64,000 nt of DNA from positions 1 to 64,000 of the IMG/VR virus record IMGVR_UViG_3300009702_000018. One strand, written 5' to 3'. This document shows, piece after piece, positions 1 to 28,634 of this stretch. The DNA is from a virus. Each line of letters starts with the position of its first letter. The stretch's first letter is position 1. The notes beneath the pieces are model-generated. The model did not search any database, had not been told where the DNA came from, and saw nothing but the letters and a program-made list of their open reading frames with translations. The position numbers and the translations under genes were made by a program.

Positions 1-9
1 ATTATTATT

Positions 10-200
10 ATTCTAGAATCTATTCTAGAATCTATTCTAGATTCTATTCTATATTCTATTCTAGATTCTATTCTAGAATCTATTCTAGAATCTATTCTAG
101 AATCTATTCTAGAATCTATTCTAGATTCTATTCTAGAATCTATTCTATATTATTACTATTCTAGATTCTAGTATATATTCTAGTATATATTCTAGTATAT
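10..200. repeat. Tandem array of about 15 copies of a 12-bp unit with core ATTCTAG (ATTCTAGAATCT / ATTCTAGATTCT, then ATTCTAGTATAT); possible origin or iteron region
   Basis: Read directly; most units contain the palindrome TCTAGA; array may extend past the window edge. Confidence 0.9.
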
Positions 201-243
201 ATTATTATATTATTTGTTATATTAGTATATATTAGTATACATG

Positions 244-350
244 TTCTTCTTCTTCTTCTTATTCTTTTTCTTATGTCTTTTCTTTTTCTTCTTCTTCTTC
301 TTCTTCTTAAAAATATGATTAAATAATTTTTATGATTAAATTATTTTATG
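244..350. repeat. Pyrimidine-rich (CTT)n tract followed by a short TATGATTAAAT duplication
   Basis: Read directly: ttcttcttcttc runs, then tatgattaaataattt-ttatgattaaattatttt. Confidence 0.7.
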
Positions 351-2013: not shown

Positions 2014-2199
2014 ATGAATGATGTCATTTTATACGAAATTAGCTACTATGGTTACCTATTCAATTGTCCTCACTGCAAATCCATAAACAATATTGAAAAA
2101 ATTAAGAAATATGAAAAAGATGAACATCAAGAGATTGTGTGTTGGAAGTGTGGCAGAATAATTGACATATATTACAAACCATTAATTCTTAAAAAGTAA
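2014..2199 (+). CDS. Small zinc-ribbon protein
   Basis: CPHC...CWKC; RBS AAGGGA. Confidence 0.65.
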   Translation: MNDVILYEISYYGYLFNCPHCKSINNIEKIKKYEKDEHQEIVCWKCGRIIDIYYKPLILKK

Positions 2200-2210
2200 G
2201 GAGATAAATC

Positions 2211-3512
2211 ATTAAAACCGCTGATATTAGAAATTCATTTTTAAATTTTTTTAGAAAAATGGGACATCGTTTGATTCCTTCATCGTCAGTCATCCCAAAA
2301 AATGATTCTACTTTGTTATTTACTAACGCAGGAATGAATCAATTCAAAGATATTTTTGCAGAAAAAAAGAAACCCGATTACCCACGAGCAGTTAGTTGTC
2401 AAAAATGCATAAGAGCAAGTGGGAAACATAATGATTTAAATCTTGTTGGATTCACTCCAAGACATCATACTTTTTTTGAAATGCTTGGGAACTTTTCTTT
2501 TGGTGATTATTTTAAAGAAAAGGCTATTTATTTAGCTTGGGAATGGCTTACAAAAGAATTAAAAATTTCTCCAAATAATTTATATGTTACTGTGTATAAT
2601 GCAGATAATTATACTTTTGATTTATGGAAGAAGATAGCTTCAGAATTAAAAGATGATCATATTTTATATTTTGGCGAAAAATATAATTATTGGTCAATGG
2701 GCAAAACAGGTCCTAATGGAGTATGTACAGAAATACATTATGATTTAGGAAAACAATTTGGGAATAGTAAATCTGATGTTGTGAATGGAAACACTAATCG
2801 TTTTATAGAAATATGGAACTTGGTATTTCCACTATTTAATCAACAATCCAACGGGAAAATAACTCGTCTTTCCAAACCTTATGTTGACACAGGGGCGGGA
2901 TTAGAGAGATTAGCATCTATTATGCAAAATGTTAATTCTAATTATGATATTGATATTTTTCGCAATTTAATTAAAGCCATTTCAGATTTAGCAAATAGGA
3001 AATATGAAGATGATCAATTTGCTCACCAAGTTATTGCTGACCATTTAAGAGCATTAACTTTTGCTATTGCCGATGGTTCTGAAATTTCCAATAAGGGTCG
3101 CAATTATGTTTTAAGACGCATACTTAGACGTGCTTCTTATTATGGTTCTTTATTAGAAATTGAAGAACCCTTTATTTATAAATTAGTTCCAGTTTTAGTA
3201 GATGAAATGGGAGATGTTTATCCAGAAATTAAAAAAAGACAAGAACATATTATGAGGACAATTAAAAATGAAGAAGAAATATTTAGTAATACTTTACATA
3301 GAGGAGTAAGAAAAACAGAAAAAATTATTCAAAAAACAAACGGTAAAATCATTGATGGTAAAGATGTTTTTATATTATACGACACTTATGGGTTTCCATA
3401 TGATTTGACAGAAGCGATCGCAAAACAAAACGAAATGAGTCTTGACAAAAATGGATTTGAAAAATTTATGAATGAACAGAAAAAAAGATCGCAAACATCA
3501 AGGAAAAATTGA
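2211..3512 (+). CDS. alaS: Alanyl-tRNA synthetase, N-terminal aminoacylation and tRNA-recognition part only (no editing or C-Ala domain); probable ATT start
   Basis: TLLFTNAGMNQFK, QKCIRASGKHNDL, RHHTFFEMLGNFSFGDYFK, EIWNLVF, DTGAGLERL, IADHLR, YVLRRILRRA, LYDTYGFP; in-frame extension IKTADIRNSFLNFF upstream of 2259 with AAGGAG 7 nt before ATT. Confidence 0.93.
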   Translation: MKTADIRNSFLNFFRKMGHRLIPSSSVIPKNDSTLLFTNAGMNQFKDIFAEKKKPDYPRAVSCQKCIRASGKHNDLNLVGFTPRHHTFFEMLGNFSFGDYFKEKAIYLAWEWLTKELKISPNNLYVTVYNADNYTFDLWKKIASELKDDHILYFGEKYNYWSMGKTGPNGVCTEIHYDLGKQFGNSKSDVVNGNTNRFIEIWNLVFPLFNQQSNGKITRLSKPYVDTGAGLERLASIMQNVNSNYDIDIFRNLIKAISDLANRKYEDDQFAHQVIADHLRALTFAIADGSEISNKGRNYVLRRILRRASYYGSLLEIEEPFIYKLVPVLVDEMGDVYPEIKKRQEHIMRTIKNEEEIFSNTLHRGVRKTEKIIQKTNGKIIDGKDVFILYDTYGFPYDLTEAIAKQNEMSLDKNGFEKFMNEQKKRSQTSRKN

Positions 3513-3543: not shown

Positions 3544-4344
3544 ATGAAACAAAAAAATAAAATCAACGATATAGATTTAAATAAATGGAAGGAATATAAA
3601 GATATTCTTACTGATAGTTTGTGGATTTTTAAAAGACGAGATAATTCGGGATCTCATAATGCAAATTATTGGGGAAATTTTATTCCCCAAATACCAAATC
3701 AAATGATGAAAAGATTTACTAAAAAGGGGGATTGGATTTTAGATACATTTGCTGGTTGTGGGACAACTTTAGTAGAAGCACAAAGATTGGGTAGAAATTC
3801 AATTGGTATAGAGTTGCAGTCCGAAATTGCCGACATAGCCAATCAGATTATTCAATCAGAGCCAAATAAATATAACGTTATTTCTAATGTTATAAACGAC
3901 AATAGTTTATCCGTTGATTATAAAGAATTAATAAAAAAATATAATATAGATTCAGTACAATTATTGATTATGCATCCGCCATATTTTGATATAATAAAAT
4001 TTAGCGATGATCCAAATGATCTTTCCAATGCTTCTTCTTTAGAAGATTTTCTTCAAATGATGGAGAAAGTTGTGGAAAAAGCATTGACTATTTTAGATAA
4101 AGGAAGATATTTTGCTTTGGTGATGGGAGATAAATATTCAAAGGGTGAATGGATACCATTGGGATTTTTAACAATGGAACGAATTCTAAAAAAAGAAGTT
4201 TCTCTTAAAAGCATAATTGTAAAAAACTTTTAAGAAACGTTTGGAAAAAGAAATCAAAAATCATTATGGAGGTATCGTGCTTTAATGGGCGGTTTTTATA
4301 TTTTCAAACATGAATATATTTTTTTGTTCAAAAAGGATAATTAA
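3544..4344 (+). pseudogene. DNA amino (N4-C/N6-A) methyltransferase interrupted by in-frame TAA at 4231-4233
   Basis: WGNFIPQIP, DTFAGCGT, HPPY; after the TAA the frame continues ETFGKRNQKSLWRYRALMGGFYIFKHEYIFLFKKDN, resembling the family C-terminus. Confidence 0.8.
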
Positions 4345-4356
4345 AGGAAATAAATT

Positions 4357-4692
4357 ATGACAAGACAAAATATGTGGCTTAAAATATCAAGAGCTTATGC
4401 TACACCATTTAAAGATCGAGACAACGAACAAATATTTATAGCTCATGCTGGTTTGTGTTATGCAATTGATCATTTTCTATTACGTGATGTATCACCAAAA
4501 ATAGTAAAAAAAGCTCGTATGTTTTTTAAAGCCGAATTTGGAAATTATAAATATTGGTTTCCTACTTATGGAGATAAAAACTTTAAAAGAAAATATGACA
4601 ATATCAGATCTTTATTTGCTTGTTTTATGGCAACAATGCCAGAAAATGATTATGAAAATTTTATTGTCGATTTAAAAACCCAAAAAAAATAA
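4357..4692 (+). CDS. Hypothetical protein
   Basis: ORF with AAGGA RBS, coupled to next gene by TAATG. Confidence 0.65.
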   Translation: MTRQNMWLKISRAYATPFKDRDNEQIFIAHAGLCYAIDHFLLRDVSPKIVKKARMFFKAEFGNYKYWFPTYGDKNFKRKYDNIRSLFACFMATMPENDYENFIVDLKTQKK

Positions 4693-5972
4693 TGAAATAT
4701 CCAGAAGAATTCATCAATAAAATAATTCAAGGTAATTGCATTAAAGTCATGCAAGAAATCCCCGAAAATTCTATTGATTCAATTATTACAGATCCCCCAT
4801 ACGGTTTATCTTTTATGAAAAAAGAATGGGATTCTTTTAAGAAATCAAAGGGATATGAATTTCAAATAAAAAATCTTAAAATGAAAACCAATCAAACTAA
4901 ATTAGAACAAAATATGAATTTTTTATCTTGGAATGTAGCATGGATGAATGAAGCAAAGCGAGTATTAAAACCAGGTGGAATTATTCTTATATTTTCGGGT
5001 ACAAGAACACAGCATTTAACAGGAATGGCTTTGGAGTTATCGGGTTTTGTTATTGCAGATACTTTAATGTGGTTATATGGTTCTGGGTTTCCCAAAGCAA
5101 TGGAAATTGGGAAAATGATTGATAAATCTAAAAATTTAGATCGAGAAGTAGTTGAAAAAAAATATAGTTCAGATATAACAAAGGGCAATTATATTAGAGG
5201 AGGAAAGAAAAATATAAATAGAATTATAGAAAAAACAAAACCCAATAGTCAAGAAGCAATTGATTGGAATGGATATAGAACAATTGGATTGAAGCCAGCC
5301 TATGAACCTATTATTCTTGCATATAAACCTCGTGAAGGAAATTATGTAAATAATATATTAAAATATAAAACAGGTGCTTTGAATATCGATGAATGTAGAA
5401 TTGGAGGAGAAGATAAAATTAAACCTTCATACAGAATAGACAAAAAATCGACAGTAATACCAATAGATAAGAAAAAAAAATATTTAAAAGATTTAGGAAG
5501 ATTCCCATCGAATGTTATTATAAATGAAGAAGTCGCAAATCAGATAGATCAACAATCGGGTATTAAAAAAACAATAGCTCAAAAAAATTATGGGTTTAAT
5601 AAAAAACCTTTATCAAAGACAAATACTTTTGCATCAAGAGGGACATATATTCCACGAGAAGATGTGGGGGGAGCATCAAAGTTCTTTTATTGTGCCAAAG
5701 CCACCCCCCAAGAAAAAATGAATAATAATCATCCAACTGTCAAACCAATAAAATTAATGACGTGGCTATGTCAATTAACCAATTCTCCATATGAAAATGT
5801 TGTATTGGATCCATTTGCGGGATCTGGATCTACAATGATTGCTTGTATGAGAACAAAAAGAAATTTCATAGGGATTGAGAAAGAAGAAGATTATGTAAAA
5901 ATAGCAAAAGAAAGAATTCAAAAAGAAAAAAATAAAAAAGAATCAAAACGAACATTAATAAGGAAAAAATAA
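4692..5972 (+). CDS. DNA N6-A/N4-C methyltransferase (beta class)
   Basis: IITDPPYGLSFM, WLYGSGFPK, LKPAYEPI, GRFPSN, HPTVKP, DPFAGSGST. Confidence 0.92.
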   Translation: MKYPEEFINKIIQGNCIKVMQEIPENSIDSIITDPPYGLSFMKKEWDSFKKSKGYEFQIKNLKMKTNQTKLEQNMNFLSWNVAWMNEAKRVLKPGGIILIFSGTRTQHLTGMALELSGFVIADTLMWLYGSGFPKAMEIGKMIDKSKNLDREVVEKKYSSDITKGNYIRGGKKNINRIIEKTKPNSQEAIDWNGYRTIGLKPAYEPIILAYKPREGNYVNNILKYKTGALNIDECRIGGEDKIKPSYRIDKKSTVIPIDKKKKYLKDLGRFPSNVIINEEVANQIDQQSGIKKTIAQKNYGFNKKPLSKTNTFASRGTYIPREDVGGASKFFYCAKATPQEKMNNNHPTVKPIKLMTWLCQLTNSPYENVVLDPFAGSGSTMIACMRTKRNFIGIEKEEDYVKIAKERIQKEKNKKESKRTLIRKK

Positions 5973-5986
5973 TATTTAATAATGCA

Positions 5987-6934
5987 ATGTTTAATTTAAC
6001 TTACAGACCCGAATCTTTTTCAGAGTTTATTGGGAATACAACCCAAATAGAAAACTTGCTGAAAAAATACCCAAAGTGGCCTTCTACTTTTTTATTAACA
6101 GGTCCTCCTGGAATTGGAAAAACAACATTGGCTCGATTAATAGCAAAACAGCTAAAATGTAATTCACTTAATATTAAAGAAATTGATGCGGGTCATGATA
6201 GAGGAATAGATACTATAAGAAATATAATTAAAGAATCTTATAATCGTCCTCTTATAGGTAAAACAAAAGTTTATATTTTTGATGAATGTCAGAGCTTAAC
6301 AAGAGAAGCTCAAGAAGCTCTTTTAAAGACAACAGAAGAAGCTCCACCAAATACTTATTTTATATTTTGTTCAACAAATCCACAAAAAATCATTAAAGCA
6401 TTGCTTGCAAGATGTAAAGCTGGATATATAAATTTAAAACCAATGAATAAACAAGAACTTGCAATACTGATTAAAAGAATTTGTGAACAAGAAGGAATAA
6501 AAATTGAAGGAATAATCAAAAAAATAGCAATTCTTTGTGTTAAAAATTCAGAGGGTATTCCACGTAATGCTATAATGCTTTTTGATAGATTCCATCAATA
6601 TACTGATATTCAAGCAGTAGCAGATGAAATGAAAAATATTGATGAAATATATGTGGAGCAAGAAATTTGGGATATGGTCAATGCTCTGGATTCAAAAAAT
6701 ATGATTCAATTTTTAAAATATTTTTCTGAAATGAAAAGGGGCAATTATGAGGGATTTAGAATTACAATGGGAAATATTTTTAAAAAGAAATTATTAAAAG
6801 CAATGCAAAAAACAGATTTAACAAATATTCAAAAATATATAGACATACTACAAATATTTAATTCCCCCGTTAATAATGAATTAGGAGATATAGAATTAAT
6901 TTATAGATTTGGAAAATATTATGGTACTTTATAA
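5987..6934 (+). CDS. Clamp-loader AAA+ ATPase, DNA Pol III gamma/tau-like
   Basis: YRP, Walker A GPPGIGKTT, RGIDTIR, Walker B IFDECQ, ALLKTTEEAP, ARC. Confidence 0.88.
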   Translation: MFNLTYRPESFSEFIGNTTQIENLLKKYPKWPSTFLLTGPPGIGKTTLARLIAKQLKCNSLNIKEIDAGHDRGIDTIRNIIKESYNRPLIGKTKVYIFDECQSLTREAQEALLKTTEEAPPNTYFIFCSTNPQKIIKALLARCKAGYINLKPMNKQELAILIKRICEQEGIKIEGIIKKIAILCVKNSEGIPRNAIMLFDRFHQYTDIQAVADEMKNIDEIYVEQEIWDMVNALDSKNMIQFLKYFSEMKRGNYEGFRITMGNIFKKKLLKAMQKTDLTNIQKYIDILQIFNSPVNNELGDIELIYRFGKYYGTL

Positions 6935-7169
6935 ATTTAATGAAGAACAAATAAAAAAAGCAAAACTTTTTATTAAAAAATTAAAAGTTAAAAGAAAAAT
7001 GTGGGAAAAAGAACGAGACAAGGCAGATAGAGATAGAAAACGATTTCCCAAGAAATATTATCATAACATAACAGAGAGAATGAAAGACGCAGAAAAAGAA
7101 ATTAGACATATAAATAAAAAAATTAAAGAATTGGAACAAGTGGTAAAATATGGAGAGTTTGAATTTTGA
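6921..7169 (+). CDS. Hypothetical coiled-coil protein
   Basis: ORF fills the gap in a dense operon. Confidence 0.55.
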   Translation: MVLYKFNEEQIKKAKLFIKKLKVKRKMWEKERDKADRDRKRFPKKYYHNITERMKDAEKEIRHINKKIKELEQVVKYGEFEF

Positions 7170-7558
7170 AAAAGGTTTATGTGGCTGGTGCTTACAATGG
7201 AGATAATATTGGTGAAATATTAAATAATATGAGAATAGGATTAAAGGTTAGTTCACATTTATTATCTTTAGGATATGCTGTCTTTAGTCCTTGGACGGAT
7301 TTTCAATTATTCTTAACTGACGATTGGGATGCAAAAAAAATAGCACAAAAAGCAAAGGCAGCTTCTTTAGAATGGCTTAAAGTTAGTGATGCTATATTTG
7401 TAGTTCCAAATGAAAAAAATTATACATCCAAAGGATTAAAAGAAGAAAGGAAAGTAGCGAAATATTTTAATATTCCCATATTTGAAGATATAAAGAAAAT
7501 GGATAAGTATTTAAAAAATAAAGAAGATAAAGAAGCGTTAGTACCTTATAATAAATGA
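7166..7558 (+). CDS. DUF4406/DUF1937-like protein (nucleoside deoxyribosyltransferase-like fold)
   Basis: KVYVAGAY, GYAVFSP, WLKVSDAIFV, SKGLKEE. Confidence 0.7.
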   Translation: MKKVYVAGAYNGDNIGEILNNMRIGLKVSSHLLSLGYAVFSPWTDFQLFLTDDWDAKKIAQKAKAASLEWLKVSDAIFVVPNEKNYTSKGLKEERKVAKYFNIPIFEDIKKMDKYLKNKEDKEALVPYNK

Positions 7559-7773
7559 ACAAAGAATATTATATAATAAAAAAAGCCCCACGACAATTAC
7601 TTGAAATGGGTATATATCTTAATGATTTCATTGAATTAAAATATGTAATGGGTAATATTTTAATTAAAAATCTTAAAAAAAATATTTTAATAGGAATTAA
7701 TAAAAATATATTAAAAGAAATGGAATTAGAGAAAATCCATCATATAGAGAAAAATGATTATATAAAAAAATAA
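7555..7773 (+). CDS. FeoA-like (SH3-like) small protein
   Basis: RQLLEMGI motif and size resemble FeoA. Confidence 0.5.
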   Translation: MNKEYYIIKKAPRQLLEMGIYLNDFIELKYVMGNILIKNLKKNILIGINKNILKEMELEKIHHIEKNDYIKK

Positions 7774-7779
7774 AAGAGA

Positions 7780-8736
7780 TTGACGATGGAAATAAAAATG
7801 AAATATAATGAAATAATTAAGGGTGATTGTATAGAAATTATGAAAAATATACCCGATAATTCTATTGATATGACATTTGCTGATCCTCCTTTTAATTTGG
7901 GTAAACAATATAATGTATATGATGATACAAAAAAAACTAATGTTTATTTAGATTGGTGCAAGAGTTGGATAAATGAAATGGTTAGAATTACAAAACCTAC
8001 TGGTTCTATATTTGTACACAATATACCTAAATGGCTTACTTATTATTCAAATTTTTTAAATGAAATCGCCTATTTTAAAAATTGGCTTGTATGGGATGCA
8101 TTATCAAAACCTGCAGGAATGGGGTTACAACCTGCTCATTATGGTATATTATATTATCATAAAAGTTCAAAGAAAGCTAAATTTTATAAAACTCGATATC
8201 CACATAAACGTTGTAGTGAATGTGGTTGTCTTGAAAAACATTATGGTGGTAGCCCAGTACATCCTTTTGGTCCATTAATTTCTGATGTATGGACAGATAT
8301 TCATCGTGTGAGAGGTAAGAAAAATAGGGATAAACATCCTTGTCAACTACCAATACCACTATTAGAAAGAATTATTCTTATGGTTACAGATGAAAATGAT
8401 ATTGTATTGGATCCCTTTGTTGGTACGGGAACAACAGCTATTGCTGCTAAAAGATTGGGAAGAAGATTTATTGGAATAGATATGGATGATTCATATGTAA
8501 AAATTTCCAAAAACAAACTTGAAAAAACATCATCAAATTCTAAAGTTGGTGATGTTTGGGTTAGTTTTTATCATAATAAAATACGAACTATCAGAAATAA
8601 AGATTGGACAAAATTATCATCATATTTCCCAGTTGCTAAAGACATAAAAGATATTAATTTTAAGGTAATGAATCCAAAAGCAAGAAGTATTATATCAAAT
8701 AAAAATATACGTTTTAAAGAGGCAAAATCATATTAA
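7780..8736 (+). CDS. DNA N6-A/N4-C methyltransferase (beta class)
   Basis: FADPPFN, SDVWTDIHR, HPCQLP, DPFVGTGTT. Confidence 0.92.
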   Translation: MTMEIKMKYNEIIKGDCIEIMKNIPDNSIDMTFADPPFNLGKQYNVYDDTKKTNVYLDWCKSWINEMVRITKPTGSIFVHNIPKWLTYYSNFLNEIAYFKNWLVWDALSKPAGMGLQPAHYGILYYHKSSKKAKFYKTRYPHKRCSECGCLEKHYGGSPVHPFGPLISDVWTDIHRVRGKKNRDKHPCQLPIPLLERIILMVTDENDIVLDPFVGTGTTAIAAKRLGRRFIGIDMDDSYVKISKNKLEKTSSNSKVGDVWVSFYHNKIRTIRNKDWTKLSSYFPVAKDIKDINFKVMNPKARSIISNKNIRFKEAKSY

Positions 8737-8831
8737 AGAGGTAGAAACATAAAGAAAGGAAACAAAAAAGAATATGACAATAAATAATAATGAAAAAATT
8801 TCCTTTAATGACAAAGATAGAAAGGAGAACT

Positions 8832-8890
8832 CGATGGTTAGCGACAAGAAGTTTCTTCATGTTGCCAACCATCGCTGACTAGTCATGAAG
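8832..8890 (+). promoter_or_regulatory. GC-rich hairpin leader overlapping a short upstream ORF
   Basis: CGATGGTT...AACCATCG closes a 43-nt stem; alternative pairing CTTCATG/CATGAAG; palindrome TGACTAGTCA. Confidence 0.5.
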
Positions 8891-8910
8891 GCTTATTTAA
8901 TGTCCCTATT

Positions 8911-9798
8911 ATGATCGGAGGATTTTATAATTGGCATCGTGCTTTTAATGGAGAATTTCATTTATATAAAGCAAAAGAAGATGAATTAGAAAATTATGAT
9001 ATTGTTTTTATTGGGATGAGTCGTCCTGAATTGGAAGGAGTAACCGCTTCAAGAATTAGAGAAAAAATTGGATGGAACAGTAAAACTAAACTTGTAATAT
9101 GTATTGATTATGCAATAGAATTATGGCAAGGAGTATTTCAACCCAATTTATTAGAACGAGAATTAATGCAAGCAGATATGATTTTTGTTTCTGAACCAAC
9201 AATGTTGTCTTATGTAAGAGCATTATTGAATGATAGAAAAAAAGTATTTCATATTGTTCATCCTACGCAAGTTGAAGACTTACAAAAACTTAGAAAACCA
9301 ATTGATATGAGAACAGATGAAATTGTTACTATTGTTCATAGATATGACAATAATTGGTTAGCCCCATATTTAGTAACGAAAGATTTAAAATGGAATAATC
9401 ATGTTGTTTTATTAGATGGAAAACAAGAAATGTATTTATATGCTTATTTTAAATATATGAAAAGTGGTTTTGAGTTTCTTAAATATTTAGATTGGGCATC
9501 AAGAAAAAAAGTAGTTTTAGATTCTTATCATAAAATTCATACATATGGTCGTTCTCCTGTTGATAATGCTTGTATTGGGATTCCCAATGTTGGAACAGAT
9601 TGGACTTATTCGCAAAAATATCTTTGGCCAAAACTTACAACACAGCCAGGATATTTAAGGGATCAAACTGAATTGATTAAAAAACTTATGACAGATAATT
9701 CTTTTTATAAAGATGTAATTGATGAGGCTACTGAAAAAGTAAAAACATTTAATTATGAAAATAGAAAAAAAGATTTTTTAAATAAGCTATACAATTAG
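8911..9798 (+). CDS. Putative GT-B-like glycosyltransferase; true N-terminus may begin at 8834 via a -1 frameshift
   Basis: YDIVFIG, ADMIFV, TYGRSPVDNACIGIPNVG and C-terminal helix pattern resemble the GT-B donor-binding region. Confidence 0.55.
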   Translation: MIGGFYNWHRAFNGEFHLYKAKEDELENYDIVFIGMSRPELEGVTASRIREKIGWNSKTKLVICIDYAIELWQGVFQPNLLERELMQADMIFVSEPTMLSYVRALLNDRKKVFHIVHPTQVEDLQKLRKPIDMRTDEIVTIVHRYDNNWLAPYLVTKDLKWNNHVVLLDGKQEMYLYAYFKYMKSGFEFLKYLDWASRKKVVLDSYHKIHTYGRSPVDNACIGIPNVGTDWTYSQKYLWPKLTTQPGYLRDQTELIKKLMTDNSFYKDVIDEATEKVKTFNYENRKKDFLNKLYN

Positions 9799-9831
9799 GA
9801 AATTATAATATATAAGAATAAAGGAACAATT

Positions 9832-10482
9832 ATGCCATTGGATAAAAAAGATATTGAAAAAATTCGAGCTCCGTTTCCAGAAGAATCAGTCCAAGTACGA
9901 AAAACATTCAAAGATGAAGATACAGGTGCTGATATTCTTTTGACGGGGTATAAGCCCCAATATATTATTGAAAGATTAAATGATTGTTTTGGACATGAGA
10001 ATTGGGATTTTAAAATTAAAGAACACGAATTGGTTAAAACACAAGCATGGGTTTTAGGACAATTAACTATTTATGTTTCTAAAATAGATGCAGAAGCTAT
10101 TGATGGTCCTATTATTAGAAAAGTTATGACAGTTAAAGAACAATTTGGAACAGGGTCTATGAACAAAGTAACTCCTATTGGTGATGCTTTTAAAAGTGCT
10201 GCAACAAATTCATTAGAAAAATGTGCTTCTTTATTAGATATTGGACATGAAGCATATAAAGGATTGGTTAAAGTCCCCACCAACTCTAAGTATGCAGTAA
10301 CAGAAAAACAAGCAACTCGATCTAAATTTGCTTCCACTTGTAAAAAATATAATGTGGGCAAAGCTGAAATGTCGGGATTTACTAAAAATGTTTTAGGGGC
10401 TTCTAAAGAAGCTAAAGAATTAACAATAGATGAAATGAATAAATTAATTAATCATTTAGAAAAGAACAAGGCACCATTTTGA
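9832..10482 (+). CDS. Rad52/Rad22 (Sak-like) ssDNA annealing protein
   Basis: YIIERLNDCFGHENW, DAFKSAATNSLEKCASLLDIG. Confidence 0.85.
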   Translation: MPLDKKDIEKIRAPFPEESVQVRKTFKDEDTGADILLTGYKPQYIIERLNDCFGHENWDFKIKEHELVKTQAWVLGQLTIYVSKIDAEAIDGPIIRKVMTVKEQFGTGSMNKVTPIGDAFKSAATNSLEKCASLLDIGHEAYKGLVKVPTNSKYAVTEKQATRSKFASTCKKYNVGKAEMSGFTKNVLGASKEAKELTIDEMNKLINHLEKNKAPF

Positions 10483-10730
10483 TAAAAATAAAAGATGTTG
10501 TTAAAGCAATAAGAAAAACTCATAATTATCCCGTATCTGGGAATTATTGGAGAAGAGTTGGGGGTATGTGGAAAAGATATGGGGGCGAAATAATGATTAA
10601 AGCTATTGAAGCAGAATCTCCAAAACAAATTTCGCTTACTCATTTTTTGAATATTGTAGAAAAGAAATGTCAATATATGATTGAGAATGGAGAGCTTGAC
10701 GAAATAGCAAATGAATTATTTAATGAATAA
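10479..10730 (+). CDS. Hypothetical protein
   Basis: Overlapping start and stop in the operon. Confidence 0.55.
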   Translation: MIKIKDVVKAIRKTHNYPVSGNYWRRVGGMWKRYGGEIMIKAIEAESPKQISLTHFLNIVEKKCQYMIENGELDEIANELFNE

Positions 10731-10741
10731 AAGGCTTAAAA

Positions 10742-11554
10742 ATGAGAAAGTATGTTAGTATTATTATTCCAGTTTATCAAACGCCCCATTATTTTGTGGA
10801 AACTGCAATTAGAAGTGCTTTATTTCAAACAGGAAATATTGAAACAGAAGTAATTTTGGTAGATGATGCAAGTACAAATAGTTGGTGGGAAAATATAGAT
10901 CAATCTTTATTAGAAGATGATAGAGTTACACTTCATCTTCTTCCTAAAAATTGTGGAGCGGGATATGCTTGGGATTATGGAATTAAAAAAGCTAAATATG
11001 ATTGGATTACTCCTTTGGCTGCTGACGATTATATTCATCCAGATAAATCAGAAATTCAATTTGCTATTATGAATGAAGCAAAAAAACAAGCCTCTCTTTC
11101 TGGGTTTAGAACTTATACATATAAAGATAATAGAATTATTAAAATCAATAATCATACACCTCCAACTTACAAAGATAATAAAAAACAATTTGAAGCATTA
11201 AGACGCAATGATTATGAAACTTGTTTTATTAAAAGTTCCACAACGCTATTTAAAAAAGAATTATATGAAAAACTTGGAGGGTTTGATTATAATTTAAGAT
11301 ATGCACAAGGACATGATTTATGGCTCAGGATGGCTAATGAAACTCTGATTATAGATGTTCCATTGCAATTACTTACTCGGAGAGAATATGATAATCAAAT
11401 AGCAAACTTGTTTCAAAATGATAAAGAAAAAAATTATGAACGCATTAGAACCATAGAATATGCTAAAATTAAATTAAAATGGGAAAAACTTCTTACTCCA
11501 ATTACAAATAGAAAAGTTAATATGGATATATTAAAAGAAGAAGGATATTTATAA
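10742..11554 (+). CDS. Family 2 glycosyltransferase
   Basis: VSIIIPVY, EVILVDDAST, LAADD, GGFD, HDLWLR. Confidence 0.9.
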   Translation: MRKYVSIIIPVYQTPHYFVETAIRSALFQTGNIETEVILVDDASTNSWWENIDQSLLEDDRVTLHLLPKNCGAGYAWDYGIKKAKYDWITPLAADDYIHPDKSEIQFAIMNEAKKQASLSGFRTYTYKDNRIIKINNHTPPTYKDNKKQFEALRRNDYETCFIKSSTTLFKKELYEKLGGFDYNLRYAQGHDLWLRMANETLIIDVPLQLLTRREYDNQIANLFQNDKEKNYERIRTIEYAKIKLKWEKLLTPITNRKVNMDILKEEGYL

Positions 11555-11566
11555 GGTTTTGCTATA

Positions 11567-12838
11567 ATGAATCAATGGTATGTAATATTTAGTCTTATAT
11601 ATAATGCTCAATATAGAGGTTATATATTATCTAAATTAAAAAAAGAATATTTTTCAGATGATTTATCTCAAAATGTTTTTCAATATATAAATGATTTATT
11701 TCTTTCTGGAAAACAAATAGATGAAAGTTTAATTAAATCTAAATTTTCCAATCATATAAATCAAATTCCATTTGATATAACATTCAATATTGATTCTTAT
11801 GAAGAATATATTTCTAATTTAAGACAAGATTATATTAATAATGAAATTTCTTATTTCGGTAAAAAAATAGTCAATTCTAAAGATATAAACGAAGAAAAAC
11901 TTCTTACAAATATAAACGAATTGATAAATAATATTTATTCTACAAAATCTATTCCTGTTAGATCTGCAGATGTTATTTTAGATAATGTTATTAATGATTT
12001 AATGTCAGATAAAAAAATTAATAATAAAATATATGGAATTGAAGAATTAGATAAACATATGGACGGATTGCATAACGGAGACTTAATTCTTGTAGCAGGA
12101 AGACCATCAATGGGGAAATCTGCTCTTACTGGTTGGATAGCAATGAAAAATGCATTAAATAAAAATGTTGTTGCTTATTTTTCATTAGAAATGAAGCCAG
12201 AAAAAATTATGTTAAGAATGTTAGCGGGAATAGCAAATATTAATTTATATAAAATGAAGCAATTCAAATCAATGTCAGATAAAGATAGATTGCCAATTTT
12301 ACAATATGTTAATAAATTAAAAGAATCTAAATTATTTATTAATCAATCTTCTGGGCTAAAATTGAATGAATTAAAATCTATTTTACAACAAATTAAGATG
12401 AAAGAAGGAAAAATAGATATTATTATAATAGACTATTTACAATTAATGGAAGGAGAAGGGATTAATGATAATACAAAAGTGAATTTTCTTTCAAAGGGAT
12501 TGAAACAAATTGCAATGGAATATGATTGCCCCGTTATTGTAGCTTCTCAATTATCAAGAAGCTGTGAAGGAAGAGACAATAAAAGACCCATTCTTTCTGA
12601 TTTAAGAGATTCTGGGGGGCTTGAACAAGATGCAGATATTGTTATTATGTTATATAGGGATTATTATTATAATCGAAACCCCGAACATAATGAATTATTA
12701 GAATTATTAGTAAGAAAATTTAGAGATGGAGAAACAGGAAAAATAATTATAAGATATGAACTCCAAAAACAAAGAATGAGTTCAATTAAAATACATAGCA
12801 AATTAGCTGAAATATCAAAACAATTTAAGTATGAGTAG
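11567..12838 (+). CDS. dnaB: Replicative DNA helicase
   Basis: AGRPSMGKS, FSLEM, IDYLQL, SQLSR, RPILSDLRDSGGLEQDAD. Confidence 0.95.
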   Translation: MNQWYVIFSLIYNAQYRGYILSKLKKEYFSDDLSQNVFQYINDLFLSGKQIDESLIKSKFSNHINQIPFDITFNIDSYEEYISNLRQDYINNEISYFGKKIVNSKDINEEKLLTNINELINNIYSTKSIPVRSADVILDNVINDLMSDKKINNKIYGIEELDKHMDGLHNGDLILVAGRPSMGKSALTGWIAMKNALNKNVVAYFSLEMKPEKIMLRMLAGIANINLYKMKQFKSMSDKDRLPILQYVNKLKESKLFINQSSGLKLNELKSILQQIKMKEGKIDIIIIDYLQLMEGEGINDNTKVNFLSKGLKQIAMEYDCPVIVASQLSRSCEGRDNKRPILSDLRDSGGLEQDADIVIMLYRDYYYNRNPEHNELLELLVRKFRDGETGKIIIRYELQKQRMSSIKIHSKLAEISKQFKYE

Positions 12839-12846
12839 GAGAAAAG

Positions 12847-13140
12847 ATGAACTTTGAAGTAACAAATGTAAAAATGACAAAAGGCGAATGGGGGAAAATA
12901 AGAGCTTTTGCTTCAATTACCTTAAACGATGCTTTTATAGTAAATGGCATAAAAGTTATTGAAGGACAAAAGGGTCTTTTTATTGGGATGCCTTCTGTTG
13001 AAAAAGATGGCAACTATAAAGATATTTGTTTCCCAACATCAAAAGAAGCAAGAGGAATTATTGAAAAAGCTGTATTAACAAAATATAACGACAATAAAAA
13101 AACAGAAACTTCAACAAAAAATGATGATTTATTTGAATAG
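12847..13140 (+). CDS. spoVG: SpoVG-family nucleic-acid-binding protein
   Basis: RAFASITLNDAFIVNGIKVIEGQKGLFIGMPS...YKDICFP. Confidence 0.9.
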   Translation: MNFEVTNVKMTKGEWGKIRAFASITLNDAFIVNGIKVIEGQKGLFIGMPSVEKDGNYKDICFPTSKEARGIIEKAVLTKYNDNKKTETSTKNDDLFE

Positions 13141-13148
13141 GAAAAAAT

Positions 13149-13904
13149 ATGTTAAATTCACGTTGGTCAGATAAAGAAAAGAAAGAATTAGTTAAGTTTT
13201 TTGATTCTTCTTGGACTCCCATGACTCTTTATAAAAGAATTAATAAAATTAATCCAAATCGTTCTTATGAAGCTGTTATGAGAGCAATTAGAAGATATAA
13301 GTCAGAAAAAGGATATAGTCAGAAATGTAAAGATGCATTAAAGAAATTAAGAATTGGCTACCTCGACATCGAGGCGACGAATTTAAATGCAAGTTTTGGG
13401 TTTATGTTATCTTGGTATATTAAAAAATATGGAAAAGATGAATATGATTGGGGATTAATTACTAAAGAAGAAATTTTTAATTTAACATTTGACAAACGAA
13501 TATTAAAGAAATTATTAAAAGCATTGGATCATTATGATATTCTTTATACTCACTATGGAATTGATGGTCGATTTGATATTCCCTTTATTAGAACAAGAGC
13601 TTTTGTTCACAATATGGAGGATCTATTACCTGACTATATGGAAAAGATAATATTAGATACTTATATGATTGCTCGTAGAAAATTAAGATTACATAGTAAT
13701 AGATTAGATGTTATTGCAACTACTTTGGGTATTAAAAATATTTCTAAAACAAGATTAGAACCAATTATCTGGACTAAAGCAAGTGCGGGCGATATGGAAT
13801 CTCTTCTATATATTAAAAAACACAATAAAATTGATGTAAAATTATTGGAGAAAATTCATCATAAGTTAAGAAAAATAGAAAGACCCATTTATAGAAGTAT
13901 GTAA
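13149..13904 (+). CDS. RNase H-like (DEDD) 3'-5' exonuclease with N-terminal HTH-like region
   Basis: YLDIEAT, RFDIPFI, SNRLD, HNKIDV. Confidence 0.8.
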   Translation: MLNSRWSDKEKKELVKFFDSSWTPMTLYKRINKINPNRSYEAVMRAIRRYKSEKGYSQKCKDALKKLRIGYLDIEATNLNASFGFMLSWYIKKYGKDEYDWGLITKEEIFNLTFDKRILKKLLKALDHYDILYTHYGIDGRFDIPFIRTRAFVHNMEDLLPDYMEKIILDTYMIARRKLRLHSNRLDVIATTLGIKNISKTRLEPIIWTKASAGDMESLLYIKKHNKIDVKLLEKIHHKLRKIERPIYRSM

Positions 13905-28580: not shown

Positions 28581-28634
28581 TCCATTCTGGCTGCCATAGC
28601 CTTCCAATGCCAATGGCAAATTAGACAGGCTATA
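28581..28634. repeat. 54-bp structured element, copy 2, directly upstream of primase
   Basis: 49/54 identical to 424-477. Confidence 0.9.

Follow-up and report, generated by a model that had tools for sequence, protein, structure and literature searches.

The DNA analysed here (the window) was the first 64 kb of the IMG/VR virus record IMGVR_UViG_3300009702_000018, which measures 103,045 bp in all. A sequence of 111 bp was repeated at both ends, and the 103-kb phage genome was closed. Its GC content was approximately 27%, and by gene content it was a tailed phage, with a tape measure, a large terminase, a DNA polymerase, a clamp and clamp loader, a DnaB helicase and a primase. Genes for RNR, RecA, RuvB and a sigma factor were also present, as were glycosyltransferases. 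Window positions 1-310, at the left end, held an array of short repeats in tandem, with units such as TCTATTCTAGAA, after which came a CTT-rich tract; the 111-bp terminal repeat was located within this tandem array. Two copies of a GC-rich element, each about 54 bp long and containing nested inverted repeats, were found 28 kb apart (424-477 and 28581-28634); the element was neither tRNA-like nor acceptor-like and matched no Rfam family. No tRNA or tmRNA gene was detected in the whole 103,045-bp genome with ARAGORN or the Rfam tRNA model. No Rfam family scored above threshold in the 64-kb window, and no tRNA-like RNA was found there. Promoter and terminator scans gave sites no more numerous than in shuffled sequence.

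The gene of interest, an alanyl-tRNA synthetase (AlaRS) reduced to its N-terminal part and hereafter called the mini-AlaRS, was located at 2211..3512 on the plus strand within a co-directional, closely packed block at the left end of the genome, next to the replication genes. Upstream in this block was a Dam-like methyltransferase (668-1795), separated from the mini-AlaRS by two 61-aa ORFs, one of them a zinc-ribbon ORF (2014-2199). A short N6/N4 methyltransferase (3544-4233, plus strand) followed directly, and two more N6/N4 methyltransferases were encoded in the same direction at 4692-5972 and 7780-8736. Pfam scans of 36 ORFs, all of at least 130 aa, showed no second aminoacyl-tRNA synthetase (aaRS); eight ORFs of at least 300 aa stood apart from this count, being either covered by a PHROGs check only or unscanned.

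Sister phages exist in public data, and they were informative about the gene downstream. The short methyltransferase had sister-phage homologs (P0394 and P0395, 382 aa) with 87-88% identity, in which Glu347 is encoded by GAA; here that codon was TAA (4231-4233), a G-to-T change, and the last 35 codons were conserved in frame to 4335. This TAA either arose recently as a nonsense mutation or reflects an error in sequencing. The two sister proteins also carried an additional N-terminal domain of 118 aa. A single deletion that took both the 3' half of the AlaRS gene and the 5' end of the methyltransferase was considered and rejected, because other viral contigs (L203 and L205) share the short form with the same start. 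The phage RecA was of bacterial type (Pfam 416 bits; L121:15438-16409, genome 79438-80409) and gave no clear host signal; a sister homolog with 86% identity (P0272) was found on short Logan/ENA contigs. Scans of metagenome and viral sequences did not recover the contigs of these sister phages. Searches for phage kin with the clamp loader returned only matches of 33-35% identity, with no AlaRS at those loci, and the search with the DNA polymerase returned zero matches. On a 19.6-kb metagenome contig (L199), a stretch of less than 7 kb (6738-13316) contained recA together with homologs of alaS and of the short methyltransferase, a gene set resembling a bacterial recA-alaS neighbourhood.

The reading frame was open for 434 codons from 2208 to a TGA at 3510-3512. 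It was preceded by an in-frame TAA at 2205-2207, and readthrough of the TGA would meet a TAA 8 codons later. An earlier note on this DNA had placed the coding sequence at 2211-3512; the frame and the stop were correct, but 2211 had no ATG, its codon being ATT. An ATC at 2208 was also in frame. ATT is a weak start codon. A Shine-Dalgarno sequence, AAGGAG, was read on the plus strand at 2198..2203, 7 nt 5' of the ATT and 0-4 nt past the stop codon (2197-2199) of the zinc-ribbon ORF, and translation of the mini-AlaRS is possibly coupled to this upstream ORF. The conserved AlaRS N-terminus (IKTADIRNSF...) started at ATT 2211, and the Zixibacteria homologs had Met two or three codons ahead of the Ile equivalent to this codon. 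The first ATG of the frame (2259) had no Shine-Dalgarno sequence, and a start there would cost 16 conserved N-terminal residues and the first helix of the structural model. ATT 2211 is probably the working start, predicting a protein of 433 aa; alternatively, an ATG could have been lost recently.

The strings quoted in the earlier note for the class II motifs and the tRNA-recognition region, SNKGRNYVLRRILRRA and LYDTYGFP, were both present in the translation, confirming that these regions are intact. The protein matched Pfam PF01411 over model positions 1-433 of 552 (E 2e-170, 568 bits against a cut-off of 30.3) and the alaS equivalog TIGR00344 over positions 1-431 of 847 (532.6 bits against a cut-off of 457). 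It thus ended near residue 433, before the editing domain, as the note had said, and the further statement that no editing fragment follows could be extended from the locus to the genome. Searched in six frames across all 103,045 bp, the genome had no match at E<=1 to either the editing domain tRNA_SAD (PF07973) or the C-Ala domain DHHA1 (PF02272), while the same searches matched 14/14 control genomes. A split AlaRS was therefore rejected, since the editing/C-Ala half was absent as a separate gene from the whole genome.

Alignment to the E. coli AlaRS fragment (PDB 3HXU) placed the class II catalytic domain at approximately residues 1-245 (2211..2945, plus strand), with a beta-rich fold in the model. 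Alignment and model placed the helical tRNA-recognition domain at approximately residues 246-433 (2946..3509, plus strand), closing with a long basic helix at 413-432. In E. coli AlaRS the counterpart of residue 433 was at about position 441, where the crystallised fragment stops. The AlphaFold model (pLDDT 81, pTM 0.81) superposed on this fragment, 3HXU (residues 1-441), with TM scores of 0.93/0.91 over 440 columns, at full length. By alignment to 3HXU, phage residues R68, W161, N203, D226 and G228 corresponded to E. coli R69, W170, N212, D235 and G237, the alanine/ATP-site residues; all five were invariant across two AlaRS alignments. Phage N294 and D391, located in SNKGRNYVLRR and LYDTYGFP, corresponded to E. 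coli Asn303 and Asp400, the pair that reads G3:U70 (PMC10036535). The residues of the alanine pocket were unchanged. On this ground an AlaRS-like paralog working outside translation with a remodelled pocket was rejected. The unchanged pocket likewise argues against a new substrate.

Conservation outside these sites was high, with some departures. Among 112 columns that were at least 95% conserved in 72 full-length cellular AlaRSs, 102 were kept in the phage protein (cellular mean 111, minimum 106). After removal of changes common to the Zixibacteria relatives, seven phage-specific changes remained at such columns: G51E, A135T, C169N, P171V, Q208L, G298N and R310Y. C169N and P171V broke a near-invariant strand, giving GPNGVC instead of GPCGPC; LVFPLF was found where LVFMQ(F/Y) was expected; and G298N was four residues from N294, the Asn of the G3:U70 pair. 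Positions A135, Q208 and R310 also deviated in the megaphage mini-AlaRS described below (overlap hypergeometric P=0.0035), which fits the idea that these are relaxed sites needed only in the full-length enzyme. The net charge of the phage protein was +10, compared with -10.9 +/- 5.2 for the N-terminal regions of the 72 cellular AlaRSs. This was not read as an adaptation, since a comparable shift was missing from the other two minis and basic proteins were the rule throughout the AT-rich proteome.

In a collection of 5.8 billion proteins (length window 238-758 aa), the nearest proteins were Zixibacteria AlaRSs with 59-63% identity, and the 90% cluster of the phage protein had one member. In a quick IQ-TREE analysis (LG+C20 PMSF), the mini-AlaRS was nested within a Zixibacteria clade with an SH-aLRT of 99, on a terminal branch of 1.14 that was 2-3 times longer than those of its Zixibacteria neighbours (0.4-0.6). 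The phage protein also shared Zixibacteria traits, both in indels and gap lengths and in the motifs NFSFGDYFK, NYWSMG and ISN. The composition of the gene was that of the phage: GC was 29.3% (genome mean 29.2%), GC3 was 17.1% (genome mean 17.9%), and codon usage (RSCU) correlated with the rest of the genome at r=0.94. By contrast, a Zixibacteria alaS locus had a GC content of 50%. Because the gene matches the phage in composition while donor-type DNA is at about 50% GC, the mini-AlaRS is an old resident, and since its 433 codons stayed in an intact frame through such strong AT drift, it must have been under purifying selection during most of the time since. Given the 20-point GC gap, the phage may also have a present host outside the Zixibacteria.

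AlaRS genes were rare in deposited phage genomes, in agreement with what the earlier note had said of aaRSs in ordinary tailed phages. A match was found in 32 of 50,697 records; the four that were opened comprised one contig of bacterial origin under a phage label and three unannotated scaffolds from feces, filed as UNVERIFIED 'Bacteriophage sp.', with alaS frames of 600-982 aa. AlaRS homologs were found at 30 IMG/VR loci. Some 20 of these were genes of 870-940 aa, most of them at contig ends, and they are probably host flanks of predicted prophages. Shorter forms in a phage context came from five records, with L004-L006 taken as one lineage. The L004/L005/L006 mini was 445 aa long, with its PF01411 match ending at position 437 and with signatures of FCB/Ignavibacteria type; this megaphage lineage included a 411-kb record that was 98% complete and carried 53 tRNAs. 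Four tRNA-Ala genes, of which two had canonical G3:U70, were located about 1 kb away from the gene, and their presence beside it argues for a real charging enzyme in the megaphage. The other two tRNA-Ala genes (L004:7327-7399 and L004:7495-7567) had a G2-U71 wobble and G3/G70 and C4/U69 mismatches in the acceptor stem. The L030 mini (4974-6266; 430 aa; PF01411 end 431), of Firmicutes type, adjoined a tail-fibre gene in a 144-kb record. GKHN was missing from its motif 2 loop and 15 near-invariant sites were altered; the protein may lack activity or serve another purpose.

The remaining short forms were less regular. L028:4977-6974, in a 231-kb record with no tRNA genes and no editing domain, encoded a very divergent AlaRS-like protein of 665 aa (36-40% identity, tree branch 6.6), whose AlaRS match stopped at model position 410 and whose last 260 or so residues had no Pfam family. 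L031:5001-6450 was a viral copy frameshifted past about residue 103, and L029:10-729 was a viral N-terminal stump of 239 aa. The tRNA_SAD domain was absent from 4/4 records tested, those holding L004, L028, L030 and L031. The PF01411 end points of the three clean minis were within a few residues of each other (433 in this phage, 437 in L004, 431 in L030). The same-boundary comparison suggested in the earlier note, made here across phages, thus came out positive for three lineages, while the frameshifted L031 and the 239-aa stump of L029 departed from it. In cells, by contrast, the corresponding region was inside a frame of at least 800 aa at 72 of 80 loci, and 4 more ran off their contigs. The free tree separated this gene, the L004 mini and the L030 mini from each other. 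In the AU test a joint clade of this gene and L004 was not rejected (p=0.14, log-likelihood difference 37.6), so that an independent origin of the phage minis is likely but not proven.

Taken together, we consider it rather probable, from sequence and model, that the gene encodes an active, editing-free mini-AlaRS charging host tRNA-Ala. The same explanation, held with the same fair degree of confidence, has an ancestor of the phage taking the gene from a Zixibacteria-related bacterium. The product would be a functional, monomeric enzyme of bacterial type that the phage lineage has long kept. It would be translated from the ATT behind the strong Shine-Dalgarno sequence, possibly coupled to the small ORF upstream, and would make alanyl-adenylate in its unchanged active site. 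Because the phage is without a tRNA of its own, the substrate would be host tRNA-Ala, charged through reading of G3:U70 in the acceptor stem by the Asn/Asp pair. Errors in the form of Ser- and Gly-tRNA-Ala would be left to trans-editing by the host (full-length AlaRS, AlaX, DTD) or tolerated in a short lytic cycle; we propose that phages can drop half of the AlaRS gene because one or the other covers these errors. The benefit to the phage would most likely be that charging of tRNA-Ala is sustained during infection. An argument from alanine demand is weak, since alanine made up only 4.9% of the phage proteome.

The main rival explanation is that the gene is a remnant on its way out: once useful, it would have lost its ATG and with it all or nearly all expression, and the truncated product would have no role. 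The ATT start is what this explanation would predict, but a perfect AAGGAG stands at the ideal distance from that codon. The seven odd substitutions at near-invariant sites and the long branch could also reflect decay; the catalytic and tRNA-contact residues, however, were all kept. Decayed AlaRS copies do exist on other viral contigs (the L031 frameshift and the L029 stump), and next to the mini-AlaRS itself the methyltransferase with its seemingly recent nonsense codon, likewise G-to-T, points to an accessory region taking hits. Yet the 433-codon frame of the mini-AlaRS was unbroken in 29%-GC DNA after full amelioration. The protein was a singleton among 5.8 billion, which also favours the remnant. 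Its end, however, was at a domain boundary common to two other phage minis and to engineered active fragments, and a random deletion would end within about 10 codons of that boundary only 2-3% of the time. We therefore regard the remnant as unlikely.

The reduction of a phage AlaRS to its aminoacylation module, as the earlier note had read it, was upheld, but the special roles it had suggested (decoy or backup, mistranslation, an adenylating or lactylating ligase) gained no support here. A counter-defence backup, in which the phage enzyme replaces or shields alanine charging when the host AlaRS or tRNA-Ala charging is disabled, is improbable. The gene has a fitting context at the left genome end among methyltransferases of anti-restriction type, and huge phages are thought to redirect translation with aaRSs (PMC7162821); however, this phage had neither a tRNA-Ala gene nor tRNA repair genes. 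No defence system targeting AlaRS or tRNA-Ala was found in our searches. We know of none aimed at either.

A job outside translation seems a little less probable again. Ala-tRNA-Ala, mischarged Gly- or Ser-tRNA-Ala, or the aminoacyl-adenylate would be fed to a non-ribosomal transfer, for example an amino-acid-bearing DNA hypermodification, by analogy with Mom, which hypermodifies DNA with Gly-tRNA-Gly. The co-directional block of four DNA methyltransferases around the gene would suit such a role, as would the phage glycosyltransferases and a faint resemblance to TGT (E 7e-4, under the Pfam cut-off), and tRNA-dependent DNA hypermodification is documented for a phage enzyme (PMC13219725). However, a transferase partner using aminoacyl-tRNA was absent: GNAT, FemAB and Acetyltransf_6 domains were found nowhere in the whole genome, and the window held no tRNA-like RNA or Rfam family. 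The alanine pocket, moreover, was the ordinary one, and the other phage minis had other neighbours, namely tRNA arrays and a tail fibre. Deliberate mistranslation, with an editing-free enzyme kept to place Ser or Gly at Ala codons, is the least credible of all: the editing domain was indeed absent from the whole genome and the editing-defective C666A AlaRS is known to mischarge, but trans-editing by the host would continue, the errors would also enter proteins of the phage itself, and a smaller gene explains the loss of the domain more simply.

AlaRS proofreading is usually regarded as near indispensable, and a bacterial-type mini-AlaRS in a phage of ordinary size broadens the view of when it is needed. 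Three phage minis share a boundary and have different bacterial donors, which suggests that viruses may have cut AlaRS back to the module for charging more than once, with the host left to deal with errors. Should these enzymes prove active, they would provide small scaffolds, already tried out in nature, on which acceptor-stem recognition can be studied in the absence of C-Ala, and they would offer a handle on why a phage without tRNAs invests in one synthetase.

No paper on a truncated phage AlaRS was found in full-text literature searches, and the only natural aminoacylation-only AlaRS found in the literature was TuAlaRS, the mini-AlaRS of Tupanvirus (461 aa), an active enzyme that can stand in for ALA1 in a yeast knockout (Antika et al. 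2023, PMC10036535). The authors described it as the only natural synthetase working with the aminoacylation domain alone. A preprint also cites TuAlaRS as a viral mini-AlaRS, and its own 'small-AlaRS' forms retain editing. Like TuAlaRS, the phage gene is virus-encoded and derived from a cellular AlaRS, and it consists of the aminoacylation module only, with a natural stop at the domain boundary and no editing partner in the genome. However, TuAlaRS is of eukaryote type and comes from an amoebal host, whereas the phage protein is of bacterial type and belongs to the Zixibacteria clade. TuAlaRS has lost the Asn/Asp residues for G3:U70, and the phage protein keeps both; Tupanvirus encodes four tRNA-Ala genes, and the 103-kb phage none. 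The activity of TuAlaRS has been shown, and that of the phage enzyme is predicted.

Among cellular enzymes, the phage protein had the same domain content and end point as E. coli AlaRS 1-441 (PDB 3HXU; 46% identity, TM 0.93) and the A. aeolicus N453 fragment (PDB 1RIQ), the latter of which charges minihelices (PMC10036535). These are laboratory truncations of full-length genes, whereas the phage gene has a natural stop codon. In the split AlaRS of N. equitans (cited in PMC10036535) the catalytic part is likewise a separate polypeptide; that enzyme, however, consists of alpha and beta subunits, and the editing/C-Ala partner is absent from the phage genome. Al-Shayeb et al. (2020, PMC7162821) described huge phages of >200 kb with numerous tRNAs and as many as 15 aaRSs, and no account of a domain-truncated AlaRS was found in the main text of that paper. 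As in this phage, their synthetases are host-derived genes of tailed phages, related to yet distinct from the host enzymes; by contrast, huge phages combine many tRNAs with many aaRSs, and the 103-kb phage had one aaRS found and no tRNA. The kind of gene reported here is thus already known from the Tupanvirus mini-AlaRS and from the aaRSs of huge phages, and to these the phage gene adds a bacterial-type case.
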